DNA of 5,230 nucleotides from IMG/VR virus record IMGVR_UViG_3300014691_000037; one strand, 5' to 3'. This document shows, one piece after another, positions 204-5,230 of the stretch. A program made the position numbers and the translations under genes. A model generated the notes under the pieces. That model was not told the origin of the DNA. It saw only the letters and a list, made by a program, of their open reading frames with translations, and searched no databases. Every line of letters starts with the position of its first letter. The stretch's first letter is position 1. The DNA is from a virus (lineage: Duplodnaviria > Heunggongvirae > Uroviricota > Caudoviricetes).

Positions 204-611
204 TTATTTTATTGATTTATTTTTACGCGCTTTAAGCATTTCTTCGAAGAGTTTGTTGAAGTTTTCTACTCTTGCGCGCATTTCAGACAGCAAGGCTTCC
301 TGCTCGGAAGATGGAAGAGCATCGAATAATTCGATCAATTCTTTGTGGTTGGGAGTTAGCTCTGTTTCCACATGAAGTTCTTGTGCAGGCACTGGTGCCT
401 TGTCTTCGTCACCAAACATTAGCCATGTAGGTGAGCACTTCAGAGCATCCGCTAAAGCAAACAATCGTTTTCCGACTGGCTGGGTTTCGTCTCTTTCCCA
501 TTGTGAAATTGTGACGTGAGCAACTCCAGCGAGGCGCGCAGCTTCTCGTTGTGTTAAGCGTAATTCTTTTCGTCGCGCCAGAACTCGCTGGCCTAGGGTT
601 CTTGTATCCAT
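204..611 (-). CDS. dicA: Prophage immunity repressor, XRE-family helix-turn-helix, DicA-like (135 aa)
   Basis: Complete minus-strand ORF (ATG 611..609, TAA 206..204). N-terminal HTH with the XRE/Cro-C1 signature (...QREAARLAGVAHVTISQWERDETQP...). Length and C-terminal segments (...CSPTWLMFGDEDK..., ...MRARVENFNKLFEEMLKAR...) match my recollection of E. coli Qin-prophage DicA. Divergent from a small Cro-like gene. No strong Shine-Dalgarno upstream. Confidence 0.85.
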   Translation of the reverse strand: MDTRTLGQRVLARRKELRLTQREAARLAGVAHVTISQWERDETQPVGKRLFALADALKCSPTWLMFGDEDKAPVPAQELHVETELTPNHKELIELFDALPSSEQEALLSEMRARVENFNKLFEEMLKARKNKSIK

Positions 612-677: not shown

Positions 678-691
678 AAGAGGGGGCTTTG

Positions 692-919
692 ATGCTTAAA
701 GTTGACGCAATTACTTTTTTTGGCAGCAAAACAAAGCTTGCCAATGCCGCAGGAGTGAGACTGGCAAGTGTTGCTGCTTGGGGGATACTGGTTCCTGAAG
801 GTCGCGCGATGCGTCTACAGGAGGCATCTGGCGGGGAGCTTCAGTATGATCCCAAAGTTTATGACGAATATCGTAAGACGAAGCGGGCGGGGCGGTTGAA
901 CAATGAAAATCACTCCTGA
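692..919 (+). CDS. dicC: Small Cro-type regulator, DicC-like (75 aa from ATG 692; the ORF track begins at TTG 689)
   Basis: ATG 692 lies 5 nt after AGGGGG; stop TGA 917..919. Small protein divergently transcribed from the DicA-like repressor, with the size and position of DicC/Cro. The dicC label rests on synteny and size plus imperfect recall of the sequence. Confidence 0.65.
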   Translation: MLKVDAITFFGSKTKLANAAGVRLASVAAWGILVPEGRAMRLQEASGGELQYDPKVYDEYRKTKRAGRLNNENHS

Positions 920-1376
920 ACAGGCTCGTGAGGCTCTGGATGCCTGGATATGTCGACCAGGAATGACACAGGAGCAGGCGACGATATTAATCACTGAAGC
1001 ATTCTGGGCTTTGAAAGAGCGCCCGAACATCGATGTTCAGCGTGTCACAGATGAAGGTGGCGCGGTTGATCAGCGAGCGCTTGGCGTTAATCGAGTGAAG
1101 ATATTCGAACGCTGGAAGGCTATCGACACCAGGGATAAGCGTGAAAAGTTCACGGCGCTAGTGCCTGCAATTATGGAGGCTATCCGGATTAATGATTTCA
1201 GGTTGTATCGTGAAATTAGTGACGGAAAAAGCATCACGTACATGATCGCCGGGTTAAACAAAGAATATGGCGATGTGGTGGAGTCCGGACTGCTTTTTGC
1301 TGATCCTGCCGTAGTGGATCGTGAAACTGACGAACTTATAGAAAAAGCAANNNNNNNNNNNNNNNNNTGGTTATAA
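903..1376 (+). CDS. Prophage early-region protein of unknown function (position of YdaT/cII-type genes); C-terminus interrupted by an assembly gap
   Basis: ATG 903 overlaps the upstream stop by 17 nt. Backbone-like G+C. The 17-N run (1351..1367) falls 7 codons before the apparent TAA (1374..1376), so the true frame, length and end are uncertain. Confidence 0.6.
   Translation: MKITPEQAREALDAWICRPGMTQEQATILITEAFWALKERPNIDVQRVTDEGGAVDQRALGVNRVKIFERWKAIDTRDKREKFTALVPAIMEAIRINDFRLYREISDGKSITYMIAGLNKEYGDVVESGLLFADPAVVDRETDELIEKAXXXXXXWL
1351..1367. other. Assembly gap / masked bases (17 N)
   Basis: Literal run of n characters in the sequence. Confidence 0.95.
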
Positions 1377-1390
1377 ACACACAGCTTGCG

Positions 1391-2305
1391 ATGAAGATTG
1401 GCTTAAATGAAGCCATTGTGTTGCAGCAGTTGCATTACTGGTTGAGAGATACCAATTCCGGCATGGAATGTGATGGTGTTCGCTGGATTTACAACACAAC
1501 GGAACAATGGCTGGAACAGTTCCCATTCTGGTCAGAGTCAACGTTAAAGCGCGCGTTTGCAAGTCTGAAAACGCTGGGGCTTTTGCGTTGTGAAAAGCTC
1601 AATAAATCAAAGCGCGATATGACCAATTTCTACACGATTAACTATGGGAGCGAGCTTTTAGATGATGGCAAATTGAGCGAATCCATCGGTTCAAAATGCG
1701 CCGCTCCATCAGGTCAAAATGACACGATGGAAGAGGTCAAAATGAAACGCTCCATTGATTCAAAACGACCCAATGTCATCGGGTCAAAATGGCCCGATGA
1801 TCCTACAGAGAATACAACAGAGATTACTACAGAGAATAAAAACACTTTTCGTCCGGAAGCTTCGCAACCGGACCCGCAGACGGCTGAACAGGATTTTTTA
1901 ATCCGGCACCCTGGCGCAGTTGTGTTTAGTGCGAAAAAACGCCAGTGGGGTAGCCAGGAGGATCTGGCGTGTGCGCAGTGGATATGGGGGCGGATCGTGG
2001 GTCTCTACGAACAGGCCGCCAGTGATGATGGCGAGATCATGCGACCAAAAGAGCCTAACTGGACTGTCTGGGCCAATGATGTGCGCACAATGCGGATGCT
2101 GGATGGCAGAAGCCACAGACAAATTTGCGAAATGTTTGGTCGGGTACAGCGGGATCCATTCTGGGTAAAAAACATCATGAGCCCGTCAAAACTCCGCGAA
2201 AAATGGGACGAACTGGTCATCCGCCTGGGACGTTCACCTGTACAGCGTTGTGTGAATCATATTTCTGAACCGGATACAGAAATTCCGCCTGGTTTCAGAG
2301 GATAA
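1391..2305 (+). CDS. Phage replication initiator (lambda O-like organisation: N-terminal winged-helix DNA-binding region, origin inside the gene, distinct C-terminal domain)
   Basis: 304-codon ORF. N-terminus (NEAIVLQQLHYWL...WIYNTTEQWLEQFPFWSESTLKRAFASLKTLGLL) resembles winged-helix domains of phage replication initiators. The middle of the gene carries five iterons and an AT-rich repeat block, exactly as lambda ori sits inside O. No Shine-Dalgarno precedes ATG 1391 and the gap lies 24 nt upstream, so the start is uncertain. Confidence 0.8.
   Translation: MKIGLNEAIVLQQLHYWLRDTNSGMECDGVRWIYNTTEQWLEQFPFWSESTLKRAFASLKTLGLLRCEKLNKSKRDMTNFYTINYGSELLDDGKLSESIGSKCAAPSGQNDTMEEVKMKRSIDSKRPNVIGSKWPDDPTENTTEITTENKNTFRPEASQPDPQTAEQDFLIRHPGAVVFSAKKRQWGSQEDLACAQWIWGRIVGLYEQAASDDGEIMRPKEPNWTVWANDVRTMRMLDGRSHRQICEMFGRVQRDPFWVKNIMSPSKLREKWDELVIRLGRSPVQRCVNHISEPDTEIPPGFRG
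1684..1791. repeat. Iteron array: five direct repeats with core (G)GTCAAAATG at ~23-bp periodicity (putative ori iterons)
   Basis: Read directly: TCAAAATG at 1691, 1714, 1737 and 1784, and TCAAAACG at 1760; spacings 23, 23, 23 and 24 bp. Flanking consensus is roughly CATCnGG-TCAAAATG-nnnCG. The repeats encode a repetitive linker (…SIGSKCAAPSGQNDTMEEVKMKRSIDSKRPNVIGSKWPDD…). Confidence 0.75.
1804..1850. repeat. Three 12-bp periodic ACAGAGA(A/T)TA repeats plus an A-rich tract (putative DNA-unwinding element of the origin)
   Basis: Read directly: ACAGAGA begins at 1805, 1817 and 1829, followed by AATAAAAACAC. Located immediately after the iterons; encodes low-complexity TENTTEITTENKNT. Confidence 0.55.
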
Positions 2306-2345: not shown

Positions 2346-2768
2346 GTGGCAAAAGTTTTTACACAAGAAGAGCGGGAAAAAATTAAAGGGCAGGTGGTGG
2401 AACTCGTGCGCCAGAGCGGTCGTGAGACGTTACGGCAACTGGAAGCTAAAACAGGTGCGACTAGATATCTGATGAGCGTTCTTGCCAGAGAGCTGGTAGC
2501 CAGTGGCGATGTATACAACTCCGGCTACGGGTTATTCCCGTCTGAACAGGCGCGTAAGGACTGGCAAAACGCCCGCAAAAAACTCTCGAGGGCAAAGGTG
2601 AAGAAACCTGCTGTGGTTGATCCGGACCTTATCTGGTCGTTACCAGACGGAGAAATACGTCGTTATGACAGGCACCAAAATATAATTTGCTGTGAGTGCC
2701 GTAATAGCGAAGTTATGCAGCGCATCTTGGCATTTTATCAGGGAAATGTTTGGTATTTATTAAAGTAA
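2346..2768 (+). CDS. Hypothetical 140-aa protein (GTG start), basic with a C-terminal Cys cluster
   Basis: GTG 2346 lies 5 nt after AGGGGG (2335..2340); stop TAA 2766..2768. Backbone-like G+C (34/60 at 2401..2460). I do not recognise the family. Confidence 0.6.
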   Translation: MAKVFTQEEREKIKGQVVELVRQSGRETLRQLEAKTGATRYLMSVLARELVASGDVYNSGYGLFPSEQARKDWQNARKKLSRAKVKKPAVVDPDLIWSLPDGEIRRYDRHQNIICCECRNSEVMQRILAFYQGNVWYLLK

Positions 2769-2799
2769 CGAGATTAAAGAGCATTAGTTCAGATATTAA

Positions 2800-2828
2800 T
2801 TGACACTTCGGTGGCACAGGGCTAGAAC
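2800..2828 (+). promoter_or_regulatory. Candidate sigma70 promoter for the cargo gene: TTGACA, 17-bp spacer, TAGAAC
   Basis: Read directly: perfect -35 hexamer at 2800..2805 and a 4/6 -10 match at 2823..2828, in the AT-rich region upstream of the 583-aa ORF. Would give a ~200-nt leader. Confidence 0.3.
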
Positions 2829-3035
2829 TACTATGGTTTGCAGCCTTGTGCCAAGAGCGGACAGTTTGAAAAATAACGGTATTATCCAGCGACAGGTACA
2901 TAGTAGTATCTGTCTTTATAAAATTTTCAGCCTTGCAATGATTTTATGGACAAAAGAAGGTTAGACATAAACCATCCCAAATGGATATGATTACTGTGTT
3001 AGTAAACACTCATGATTATTACGGAGGGCTATTAA

Positions 3036-4787
3036 GTGCTTGATTATTTATCAAAGCTTCCTTTACCGGCTGAGCAAATACCACAGGGTTTAAAGGACCT
3101 ATTATTTGTTGAAGACAATTCTAACCCCCAGCGAGAAGTTACTGTAACCCATCATTACGAAAGAAATAAGTATCAAGATGACTATGATTACACTCATATG
3201 ATCATGGCCGTAGTTCCTGAGAATGATGTTGCAAATCTAAGTGTGTTACGTGAATCCCGTGACGGTGTCGTCACATTTTCCACTCAGGACTGTACAGAGA
3301 AAGGTGGAGCTTGGGGTACAGATATATCTATCTCCGGTTATGGGTATATTGTAGCTTCTTGGGGTTCAAGTCTTCACTACTCCTTTTTGTTGGCCGAAGA
3401 TGTCTGGATGAAACTGGGATTAAAACCAAGGCTCATAGGGGATGATGAACAAAAAGTAATTTTTGATGAGGTTTCTTCGCCATCATATGGAGTCGTGCAA
3501 GGCGATGTCTCAAGAGAATATCATTTCAAAAGCAACAAAGATATTAAATGGACAATGAGGAATGATTACCTCAGAAAATATTTATGGATGAAAGGTTGTG
3601 TTGGAGTAAAAGTTTTTTTCTTCGAAGCCTATATCGAACGAACTAAAGAGGTACTCGGACTCTTATCAGGTTCTAATCACTTTAGAATCGAACTTCCTTG
3701 GATTGAATTTGAAATAGTTGACCATACAGATAGGATATTGCTGCAAGCATGGGGAACTGTTCAATCTGTTCAGCCAGAGCTTTGCTCTGAATTAGATGTC
3801 AACACATTAGTATGGCCCGGTCACAAGTCACCGATAACAATGTCGGGAGCTACCGATTATCGTAGTGGCGAATACGTATATGTTGATGATGCTTTTCTTA
3901 CTAAATATGAAAAAGATAAGACATACGAAGCCATTCCATTTTTTTATGGCAATCACTATCATGCAGATCCTAGCTATGGCGGGCAATGGGCATTTAGAGG
4001 CTGTACTAGAGTCGGTAGGAACTTAGTGAAAATATATTTTTATGATCTTTACCAAGGAGTTCCAGAAAAGGAAATATATCATGTGTTTGATTATGCGAAA
4101 GACCAAAGCCTTATTGATACTAATTCATTAGATAATGAGCATATTGTTTCTAAGACTTTTAGATTTGCTAGAGAACTAACTGAGCTTAATGGAAATCTAG
4201 TGTCTCTAGGTAGAGTTTTAGATGTTCCCCTATCGAGTTCTGATATTTTTGAATACAACAGAGACGAACTAGATGAAGAAGGCATTAGAAATTATCCTGT
4301 ACTGCAAAAGCTTGCTCATGTAGCCTCAATCGATATGCAAGAGCAAGATTTCCTAGCTAGATGCAAGACTATAAACGAGATCATTACTAAAATTAAAACT
4401 GGTTCATTGAAGAAATTAAGTATTGCTATGGGGGTGAAGGCTGAGGATATTGAAAGATTGCAAACGCTAAAATTATTGCAAGGAATATTAAACCTTACAA
4501 GTGTTATTAATGAGCAAAATGAAGAGCAATCCGCGCTAAAACATGCCAATGAACTTGCAAAGTATAATTCACCCAATCATACATTAGCAGCTCTATTTAT
4601 AAATAATGACTTGAGGAACGCTGAAGCTCATGAAGCAGTCAATAAATCCATTGAACATCTAGCTAGTCTTGGTTTTGATAGCGCAACTTTGGCATCCGGT
4701 TATAGCCATGCTTTAGATTTTATATTTGATCAAATTATTGAGAGCTTGAGGAGTTTTAATTCGACTTTAAATGAAGTCCTGCACTAA
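3036..4787 (+). CDS. Large hypothetical protein (583 aa) on an AT-rich foreign insert; candidate single-gene phage-defence/abortive-infection protein with a C-terminal HEPN-like R-N-x-x-x-H motif
   Basis: GTG 3036 lies 6 nt after GGAGGG (3024..3029); stop TAA 4785..4787. G+C about one third by hand count (19/60 at 4081..4140) against ~60% in the phage backbone (36/60 at 1021..1080). Aromatic-rich N-terminal ~400 aa not recognised; helical C-terminal ~160 aa contains LRNAEAHE (residues 526-533). Confidence 0.85.
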   Translation: MLDYLSKLPLPAEQIPQGLKDLLFVEDNSNPQREVTVTHHYERNKYQDDYDYTHMIMAVVPENDVANLSVLRESRDGVVTFSTQDCTEKGGAWGTDISISGYGYIVASWGSSLHYSFLLAEDVWMKLGLKPRLIGDDEQKVIFDEVSSPSYGVVQGDVSREYHFKSNKDIKWTMRNDYLRKYLWMKGCVGVKVFFFEAYIERTKEVLGLLSGSNHFRIELPWIEFEIVDHTDRILLQAWGTVQSVQPELCSELDVNTLVWPGHKSPITMSGATDYRSGEYVYVDDAFLTKYEKDKTYEAIPFFYGNHYHADPSYGGQWAFRGCTRVGRNLVKIYFYDLYQGVPEKEIYHVFDYAKDQSLIDTNSLDNEHIVSKTFRFARELTELNGNLVSLGRVLDVPLSSSDIFEYNRDELDEEGIRNYPVLQKLAHVASIDMQEQDFLARCKTINEIITKIKTGSLKKLSIAMGVKAEDIERLQTLKLLQGILNLTSVINEQNEEQSALKHANELAKYNSPNHTLAALFINNDLRNAEAHEAVNKSIEHLASLGFDSATLASGYSHALDFIFDQIIESLRSFNSTLNEVLH

Positions 4788-4818
4788 TGTTAAAGTGCAA
4801 TATAAGATTTAGATGATG

Positions 4819-4873
4819 CCTTAAGGTTTTTTATTCAGTTAATACTTATTGGTTCTATTAATAAGTAATTTTT
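4819..4873 (+). terminator. Weak terminator-like elements after the cargo gene: CCTTAAGG followed by TTTTTT, then an AT-rich 8-bp stem followed by ATTTTTAT
   Basis: Read directly: palindrome 4819..4826 followed by T6 (4827..4832); TACTTATT (4843..4850) pairs with AATAAGTA (4860..4867), followed by a T-run at 4869..4873. The stems are short and AT-rich, so termination efficiency is doubtful. Confidence 0.2.
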
Positions 4874-5150
4874 ATGTCTTCTGAAATATTTGTGCCGATA
4901 ACAGGGTCATTAGTAATATATTCAATAGTTACGGGCTAATTGCCAGTGTTCGCCTTTCGCTCAAAGCGGACTAGAAGGTTAGCTTACGTCGGACTTGGCG
5001 TATTTAAAGAAGAGTTGGTGGTGACTGGTTGTTGTGTTCCATTTCTACAGAACAAAATCACAGAAACTATACCCAATAGTTGTATTGAAGCACTGACGAG
5101 ACAGCCTCATATTTATCAGGGCAGGTGTATATCCAATACAGGAGGTTGTC

Positions 5151-5230
5151 GTGCTGGTCCTCAAATGTGCGCTAGCTATTGCGGCTGTAATGGCAATTTA
5201 TTGTCTTGCTGTTGTTCTTACGGATCGCCT
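5151..5230 (+). CDS. 5'-truncated-by-window small hydrophobic protein, possible Hok/Gef-type type I toxin (N-terminal 26 codons visible)
   Basis: GTG 5151 lies 5 nt after AGGAGG (5140..5145). The visible peptide VLVLKCALAIAAVMAIYCLAVVLTDR is one transmembrane-like helix ending in charged residues, as in Hok-family toxins. The ORF runs off the window edge, so it is absent from the ORF track. Confidence 0.35.
   Translation, partial: MLVLKCALAIAAVMAIYCLAVVLTDR

Follow-up and report, generated by a model that had tools for sequence, protein, structure and literature searches.

The slot and its variable segment

The viral record IMGVR_UViG_3300014691_000037 of IMG/VR is a tailed-phage sequence of 5,230 nt, analysed here over its whole length (the window). 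Its genes are those of the early region of an E. coli prophage, lambdoid and of the Qin/mEp460 type. Within it, a low-GC segment carrying a cargo open reading frame (ORF) of 583 amino acids (aa; 3036..4787, + strand, GTG start) lies between the DUF977, or 'Ren-like' (LygF), gene, which forms the left anchor (2346..2768, +; Pfam DUF977 E 9e-30, PHROG 142 E 8e-46), and backbone sequence leading toward hokD and rem (4955..5230, +, assigned by comparison with relatives). The island makes up a single cassette of cargo, open to exchange, in a defence hotspot that reaches from the DUF977 gene to hokD.

The G+C content is 0.472 over positions 1-2768, 0.364 over 2864-4954 and 0.438 over 4955-5230 (backbone versus island, chi-square 55.7, p = 9e-14), while third codon positions have a G+C content of 0.29 in the cargo ORF; four plus-strand backbone ORFs have 0.45-0.51, and the dicA-like repressor gene, the fifth backbone ORF measured, has 0.38. 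Alignment with nine relatives whose cargo differs shows homology stopping at 2862/2863 of the window and restarting at 4952-4957. Since this homology runs to 2862/2863, positions 2769-2863 belong to the conserved backbone, and the alignments place the variable segment at 2864-4954, a length of 2,091 bp. A first-pass annotation, made from the letters alone, had described a sharp compositional island at 2769-4950, produced by cargo insertion between backbone genes. The GC profile does contain the step, and the island is real, but it is less sharp than described: the drop is under way within the final ~100 nt of the DUF977 gene, the change falls near 2675 by maximum-likelihood partition, and recovery reaches only 0.44. 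By the homology of relatives, the right edge lies near 4950 as claimed, whereas the left edge lies about 95 nt to the right of 2769. The insertion itself was borne out by alignment, in that relatives with 90-99% identical flanks hold different DNA between the same junctions; the low-GC segment is not conserved backbone, and other cargo fills the same slot.

Among 41 slots drawn from E. coli genomes, phages and IMG/VR contigs, 19 unrelated cargo classes were distinguished, ranging from 233 to 6,723 bp, nearly all lower in GC than their flanks and with genes on either strand. Of 5,426 complete E. coli genomes searched with megablast, more than 4,200 contain the flanks (90-99% identity), in each case within a Qin-type prophage, and none contains the island DNA, of which only the first 95 nt as originally drawn (backbone, from 2769) find a match. 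The alternative cargo includes a DUF5677 protein, a DUF7380 plus DUF4209 protein, an FRG-domain protein, proteins of 449, 257 and 269 aa, and a 320-aa protein accompanied by a GNAT-like protein; phage Evi carries an HTH-cupin regulator with a GNAT protein, which are not obvious defence genes. Three classes are matched by PADLOC models, namely PD-T7-1 (E 4e-157), PDC-S39 (E 2e-102) and PDC-S15 (E 7e-99). The anti-phage activity of PD-T7-1 has been validated experimentally against T-even phages and T7 (PMC9519451), and PDC-S39 and PDC-S15 are candidate defence systems. Variable cargo that includes the validated PD-T7-1 supports insertion into a hotspot: the flanks are fixed, the content is variable, known defence systems are among the occupants, and anti-phage defence is the theme of the slot. 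That the low-GC segment might instead be ancestral backbone, with no insertion, has practically no probability left, since all that speaks for it is the occurrence of the segment in at least 24 draft assemblies of E. coli, and it is ruled out by its absence from the complete genomes (0 of 5,426, with flanks in more than 4,200), the junctions in relatives and the 18 other cargo classes that fill the slot.

No empty DUF977-hokD slot was found among the 5,426 E. coli genomes. The nearest to empty is that of E. coli A20 (NZ_CP028755.1, locus L010, 1838-2117), with 233 bp between the two junction motifs described below; its right end resembles that of a 2,641-bp cargo class (L063), and the A20 slot is probably a deletion remnant.

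The same kind of arrangement has been described for the defence hotspots of P2 and P4 (Rousset 2022, PMC9122126; Vassallo 2022, PMC9519451), where conserved phage genes likewise flank a short, low-GC variable segment with anti-phage systems of few genes, and the PD-T7-1 of the Vassallo screen (PMC9519451) occupies this very slot in relatives of the window. Unlike those hotspots, the slot lies in the early region of a lambdoid phage, from the DUF977 gene to hokD, and displays a specific junction motif. For the P2 and P4 hotspots, the mechanism of exchange with unrelated elements is stated to be unknown (PMC13586616; PMC9122126).

Junction motifs

Two copies of a 24-nt dyad, of the general form GTCCGCT-N10-AGCGGAC and assigned to repeat family D6 without strand, sit exactly at the junctions. 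The left motif, B (2839..2862), reads TGCAGCC-TTGTGCCAAG-AGCGGAC; its outer arm is degenerate in the window, relatives having GTCCGCT-TTGTGCCAAG-AGCGGAC, and homology to relatives with other cargo ends 1 nt past it. The right motif, A (4948..4971), reads GTTCGCC-TTTCGCTCAA-AGCGGAC, against GTCYGCT-nnTCGCTCAA-AGCGGAC in relatives, and the restart of backbone homology falls within it. Motifs occur at both junctions in every relative compared, and AGCGGAC is found twice in a 21.7-kb prophage segment, both times at the junctions. Read on the plus strand, the right motif agrees with the left motif's reverse complement in 21 of 24 positions, counting the loops, and the two copies are therefore best described as inverted. 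The first-pass annotation had seen no convincing flanking direct repeats, a statement that the paired motif overturns; it had also seen no recombinase gene, in agreement with the finding of none in the cassettes or consistently beside them. The insertion mechanism, which it had left unclear, now has a concrete lead in these motifs.

The sequence that changes with the cargo includes part of each motif. On the left it takes in the final 2 nt of the loop, then the inner arm and then an [A/G]TT triplet; on the right, an AA[C/T] triplet is followed by the inner arm and by 2-3 nt at the start of the loop. Three cargo classes have complementary inner-arm variants with outer arms of the backbone type, reading AGCAGAC ... 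GTCTGCT in the FRG cassette and in a 667+430-aa cassette, and AGAGGAC ... TTCCTCT in locus L068. Such covariation of the inner arms would be the pattern expected of crossovers inside the motif. Additionally, some slots contain two cassettes divided by an internal B motif, of which the first is shared and the second different, so that the breakpoint falls at the internal B motif.

An Rfam search (E up to 1) of the window and six motif-rich loci returned nothing at the motifs. As a separate observation, the ~30 nt directly after motif B (e.g. TTGCTGGCTCATGGTATGTTAGTTTA) are common to different cassettes in different phage backbones (L008, 1419-1450; L237 and L259) and hold an extended -10-like TGGTATGTT; this stretch is possibly a conserved promoter of the cassette end, reading outward or inward.

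Motifs in other replicons

Another enterobacterial genome (locus L020) has a homologue of the cargo (94% identity) directly after the proA terminator and outside any prophage. Nucleotide homology of this locus to the window spans exactly 2843-4969 (2,127 bp, 93%): it starts within motif B, stops at the end of motif A and does not continue on either side. In IMG/VR, 31 of 79 loci with a B motif lie in the DUF977 slot and the other 48 fall into at least 8 other flank families; the sequence just past the motif differs among members of one flank family. Several of these loci are P2-like phages, in which gene G (tail-fibre assembly) and gene FI (sheath) enclose the motifs, and P2-like contigs carry arrays of B-cargo-A-spacer-B-cargo-A.

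The 32.5 kb of phage P2 contain exactly two motifs, at 15423 and 17021, which bracket Z/fun, a segment with a GC content of 0.373 against 0.516 for the genome. Here the same B and A motifs stand in the same order round a low-GC segment as in the window, although the phage family and the flanking genes (G and FI) are unrelated. The symmetry in P2 extends outward to ~33 nt (AATCTGACAGTCCGCT... / ...AGCAGACTGTCAGAATT). In Salmonella phage STYP1 the same slot is empty and both motifs are missing; comparison of P2 with this empty slot revealed no target-site duplication. Site-specific recombination at the variable loci of P2 was reportedly proposed by Nilsson, Karlsson and Haggard-Ljungquist (2004, Mol Biol Evol 21:1-13). 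The P2 motif may already have been noted there, which lowers confidence that the observation of the motif is new.

Further matches came from a scan of one genome per species, in which the taxa among the matches listed include Hyphomicrobiales, Xanthobacteraceae, Nitrosomonadaceae, Pantoea, Serratia, Klebsiella, Mixta and others. The query had 17 fixed bases, for which ~70 chance matches are expected in 596 Gb, and at least 120 were found; the count alone is therefore no evidence, which comes instead from the extended palindrome, the multiple copies and the doublets. Real matches show the extended palindrome ATGTCYGCTTTGTGCCAAnAGCGGACAT, several per locus on one strand, often with a second copy ~20 nt off that has the same stem and another loop.

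In metagenome-assembled genomes (MAGs) of alpha-, beta- and gammaproteobacteria (L114, L140, L168, L130, L181), the same palindrome, of 24-28 nt, forms doublets with variant loops, such as GTCCGCTTTACCCCCGAAAGCGGACAT ~20 nt before ATGTCCGCTTTGTGCCAATAGCGGACAT, several per contig and adjoining housekeeping-type genes; it resembles a REP/REPIN-like family that hardly differs between proteobacterial classes. In Pantoea sp. AS142 (L126, 1420-5070), two B motifs bracket an ApeA-NTD/HEPN_Apea protein of 594 aa and a SIR2 protein of 450 aa (PDC-S25), which make up a further defence pair with the motif at its borders, away from the DUF977 slot.

The cargo gene and its product

The cassette 5' region (2864..3035, +) contains a promoter-like TAGACA-18-TATGAT at 2962-2991, a 10/12 match, and a GGAGGG ribosome-binding site (RBS) at 3023-3028 ahead of the GTG start. 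In the cassette 3' region (4788..4947, +), an intrinsic terminator (~4803-4836) is intact in L020, where its hairpin reaches -15.9 kcal/mol with z -4.0, and decayed in the window (z +0.9). On the view that the insert brings its own promoter-like and terminator-like elements, the evidence is mixed: the promoter-like site and the RBS are both kept in the 93%-identical L020 copy, but a scan of 2600-5230 gave 7 promoter-like and 2 terminator-like sites against 8.5 and 1.4 in shuffles, which is not an enrichment, and the terminator of the window has decayed.

At least 24 contigs encode the identical 583-aa protein; those listed are mostly NCBI draft assemblies of E. coli, and the prophage occupies two different attachment sites. 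The family of the protein, whose more than 200 members measure ~585 aa and are all annotated as 'hypothetical', extends over gamma-, beta- and alphaproteobacteria, with representatives in Yersinia, Serratia, Pectobacterium, Enterobacter, Vibrio, Shewanella, Pandoraea, Paracoccus and Bradyrhizobium. The genes occur in a Qin-type prophage, in an island after proBA, in an element with a giant LPD/MuF polyvalent protein and in variable islands of Vibrio, and no partner gene is conserved across the neighbourhoods compared.

The AlphaFold (AF2) model of the protein is confident (predicted local distance difference test score 88.9) and comprises a beta-rich N-terminal region, residues 1-360, and an all-helical C-terminal region whose HEPN-like domain spans ~430-583 and includes E448, R527 and H532. 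In an alignment of 40 sequences, DLR527-x4-H532 is invariant, appearing as DLRN(A/S/T)EAH in enterics and Vibrio and as DLR(I/V)ADAH elsewhere; E448 never varies either, and most members have K or R four residues further on (NEIITK, HEIWQK/R). These match the HEPN hallmarks, which are Rx4-6H with a usually polar residue after the arginine, and an upstream acidic residue, typically in Ex3[KR] (PMC3710099). HEPN Abi and toxin RNases such as DUF4209/C6orf70, HepS, AbiD/F, RnlA/LsoA and PrrC (PMC3710099) resemble the cargo protein in having a C-terminal helical domain, Rx4H usually followed by N, and the upstream Ex3[KR], and the prophage setting is a further likeness; the cargo protein carries both Rx4-6H and Ex3[KR] but matches no curated family profile. 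DUF4209, listed as a HEPN family by Anantharaman et al. (PMC3710099), is itself cargo of the same slot and has DLRNQLAH at the same relative position near its C-terminus, hhalign aligning the two proteins over the 14-residue motif only. HEPN motifs can be recognised in the sequence of the cargo protein, and the nearest structural neighbours of its model are mostly HEPN proteins, at low Z, so that the model is only suggestive of a HEPN fold for the C-terminal domain.

When the cargo family was aligned by hhalign with the DUF5677 protein of the slot (L001, 4564-5589; window 4356-4412), RCKtlNEI...K.G and RACHIANEI...K.G were the only region aligned. The stretch holds the conserved glutamate, a hint that the DUF5677 protein may share the helical effector type of the cargo protein. 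The alignment is not significant (E 0.12).

From the motifs, the fold neighbours and the company kept in the slot, the cargo gene is predicted, with an even chance of being right, to be a stand-alone abortive infection (Abi) defence gene of the HEPN type. Its beta-rich N-terminal part would sense infection, and the HEPN-like domain would cut RNA through R527 and H532. Against this prediction, the cargo protein has no match in Pfam, NCBIfam, PADLOC or PHROG, and 40 relatives scanned one by one, at E up to 10, gave nothing consistent in Pfam, NCBIfam or PADLOC. Foldseek of the full model against PDB returned no match at E up to 0.001, and assignment to HEPN by sequence failed with Pfam on 40 members, with hmmsearch of PDB and with a C-terminal profile search of 5.8 billion proteins.

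The cargo might alternatively be a moron of another kind and no defence effector, for example a toxin that plays no part in immunity, or a factor for anti-defence or host fitness. The missing match to any defence-library model would fit this, as would slot occupants such as the HTH-cupin and GNAT genes of phage Evi; the HEPN-type motifs and fold neighbours, a slot shared with a validated system and candidate systems, and homologues in variable islands and mobile elements all speak against it, and we regard it as improbable, at roughly one chance in five.

Proposed exchange at the junction motifs

The motif-to-motif recurrence, the P2 pair and the covarying arms make the motifs look like exchange points, and we infer that B and A are the points where cassettes are exchanged. 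The best explanation overall, in which confidence slightly exceeds an even balance, combines an exchangeable cassette, a HEPN-like Abi protein and motifs that serve as portable linkers. The B and A motifs would act as portable recombination linkers, a crossover inside them swapping or capturing a cassette. The pathway would be relaxed short-homology recombination during phage replication, by Rad52-like/RecET-type proteins or RecA and with no enzyme encoded in the cassette. Phage Rad52-like and RecET recombinases tolerate short, diverged homology. This pathway, which is analogous to the one put forward for the PeSL motifs of T4-type phages (PMC2839356), is favoured with a confidence that falls a little short of even.

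A number of results weigh against motifs as linkers. No recombinase is tied to the motif, and ordinary homologous recombination in the long flanks would suffice for swaps within Qin-like prophages. Comparison of ten slot cassettes with 45 loci from other backbones gave no match of 100 nt or more, and movement between contexts therefore rests on one pair, the window and L020. In non-enterobacterial genomes the motif often flanks genes of a housekeeping character, namely a symporter, DegP and an ABC-transporter binding protein, and there it thus behaves like an element of the REP/REPIN type. In single-strand folding, perfect B copies are stable (z -3.3), and A copies and both copies in the window are not. 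Since many copies fold poorly, it is the dyad sequence that is conserved and not a hairpin, and the notion of a stable hairpin was dropped because only perfect B copies fold well.

The strongest competitor to linkers used by general recombination is a dedicated enzyme acting in trans, such as a tyrosine, serine or HUH recombinase or a transposase, on motif sites or terminal inverted repeats (TIRs), the cassettes then being non-autonomous mobile elements independent of integrons. This is a tentative alternative, given somewhat under one chance in three. The unit common to the prophage and the proA-side locus runs exactly from motif to motif, the hybrid arms resemble attL and attR as expected of a crossover inside a site, the loop is kept across very distant taxa, and arrays of same-strand copies occur; the TIR-like symmetry of ~33 nt in P2 and the STYP1 slot, empty of both motifs, would also suit such an enzyme. 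However, no recombinase or transposase is found in any cassette or consistently nearby, no target-site duplication separates P2 from STYP1, attC features are missing, and the orientation of cargo is mixed. With respect to insertion sequences (IS) and non-autonomous transposons, the inverted match of 21/24, extending to ~33 nt in P2, might stand for terminal inverted repeats, and a target-site duplication (P2 against STYP1) and a transposase (in the cassettes) are not seen. A synthetic inverted-junction query for the PD-T7-1 cassette found 0 inverted junctions among 2,766 E. coli records matching the junction query; inversion of the cassette between the inverted motifs was rejected on this result, and the second orientation typical of an invertible segment of the Hin/Gin/Pin type was thus not seen.

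The comparison with integrons bears on the same question. As in integron cassettes, the order is site-cargo-site, arrays occur, cargo may have a promoter or lack one, and sites are hybrid after exchange; the triplets [A/G]TT after B and AA[C/T] before A resemble the G|TT and AAC of attC. By contrast, attC sites measure 57-141 nt, with R''/R' (RYYYAAC/GTTRRRY) and L boxes, whereas the motif has 24 nt and no R/L box pairs, and its crossover is apparently inside the loop, in place of G|TT. Integrons further have IntI, attI, Pc and a uniform orientation, while the prophage has only its Int at the att end, and cargo on either strand. A canonical integron is ruled out by the motif length, the missing R/L boxes and IntI, and the mixed gene orientation.

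Less probable still, though deserving about one chance in five, is that the motifs are functional backbone elements that selection preserves and that only for this reason look like junctions, such as protein-binding operators, RNA 3' stem-loops or insulators keeping cargo transcription out of phage operons, with turnover of cargo through homologous recombination in the long flanks and rare illegitimate events. The distal motif halves are conserved together with hundreds of bp of flank, REP-like copies stand at gene ends near housekeeping genes in alpha- and betaproteobacteria, and the arrangement is symmetric about the cargo (the 21/24 inverted match), all of which would accord with such a role. 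Nevertheless, the motifs travel with the cassette to an unrelated locus and occur in unrelated phage families, a U tract is absent and many copies fold poorly, and a P2-type slot that is empty lacks the motifs.

Among repeats of the REP/REPIN kind, the likeness lies in short intergenic dyads, in doublets with the same stem and different loops, and in several copies per contig in alpha-, beta- and some gammaproteobacteria. The E. coli prophage has the two junction copies only; REPs are typically species-specific and linked to RAYT, whereas the motif hardly changes between Hyphomicrobiales and E. coli phages, and GTAG, a form of the REP 5' GT[AG]G tetranucleotide, is no part of the conserved motif. 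A parallel in arrangement is offered by the PeSL (promoter-early stem-loop) cassettes of T4-type phages, where short stem-loop repeats flank insertions, deletions and replacements of non-essential genes and recombination between the repeats is proposed for the modular shuffling (PMC2839356). The motif described here differs from PeSL in its sequence, in its phage group and in being common to unrelated temperate phages and chromosomes.

Portable linkers used by general recombination are the favoured account of exchange. A bolder proposal is that B and A are sites of an unrecognised, integron-independent cassette system that moves defence genes among hotspots of unrelated temperate phages (P2-like Z/fun, the lambdoid DUF977-hokD slot and at least seven other flank families in IMG/VR) and chromosomal islands, with the cargo as a new single-protein defence of the HEPN type; taken as a whole it is doubtful, a minority view with somewhat less than a one-in-three prospect.

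Prophage backbone around the slot

In E. coli Qin-type relatives the gene order is int, exonuclease, dicB, ydfA, dicA, dicC, ydaT, O, DUF977, the variable slot, hokD, rem, DUF968, a Q-like antiterminator and the lysis genes, and the sequenced phages mEp460_ev081, Tritos and Evi have the same organisation, including the DUF977-hokD slot. In the window, the backbone begins with a DicA-like HTH repressor of 135 aa (204..611, - strand; Pfam HTH_3 E 1.5e-14), identical in position and product to that of E. coli Qin-like prophages, where it adjoins ydfA/dicB. It is followed by a DicC/Cro-type regulator (689..919, +; Pfam P22_Cro E 5e-12, relatives annotated DicC), a YdaT/CII-like gene (903..1376, +; Pfam YdaT_toxin, PHROG CII-like) and an O-like replication initiator or DnaD-like loader (1391..2305, +; PHROG 391 E 8e-92, and gene calls in L014-L019). 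A run of 17 N at 1351-1367 masks the 3' end of the YdaT-like gene; alignment to the relative L001 indicates that it stands for ~82 bp in relatives, covering the YdaT-like stop and the O-like start. The O-like protein has 321 aa in relatives against 304 aa as listed in the window, the true start lying within the masked stretch.

The 3' flank of the DUF977 gene (2769..2863, +) is kept in all relatives; within it, TTGACA (2799-2804) is followed by a stem of 12 bp that pairs 2812-2823 with 2842-2853 (-12.6 kcal/mol, z -2.6). The 3' half of the stem and the loop of motif B overlap, and the alternative pairing is present in the window because the outer arm of the motif is degenerate there.

On the hokD side, a small hydrophobic ORF (VLVLKCALAIAAVMAIYCLAVVLTDR...) with a GTG start and AGGAGG 3 nt upstream occupies 5150-5230 and runs off the end of the window. 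It has 29 aa in L010 (2289-2375) and is kept in all relatives between the slot and hokD, where RefSeq records leave it without annotation; it could be a membrane peptide or a type I toxin-like gene. The prophages of L014-L018 and of L019 have the early region and the cargo in common but differ in integrase and attachment site (the side of an alcohol-dehydrogenase-family gene versus the ompW side), which shows modular reassortment of the integration module.

Novelty and implications

Defence hotspots in temperate phages and HEPN Abi proteins are already known. In the literature searched, no description was found of the lambdoid DUF977-hokD slot or of the motif, and a search with the motif sequence gave chance matches only.

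Prophage hotspots are a main reservoir of anti-phage genes, and the motif pair offers a concrete and testable handle on how such genes move. If the motif is causal, it would provide a rule at the level of DNA for finding cargo slots, and hence new defence genes, together with a testable mechanism and perhaps a tool for cassette exchange. A cassette system of the kind proposed, if true, would explain how antiviral genes move between elements that have no common flanking homology. Quite apart from the motif question, the 583-aa family stands out as a promising candidate, a new single-gene defence whose effector would be of the HEPN type.

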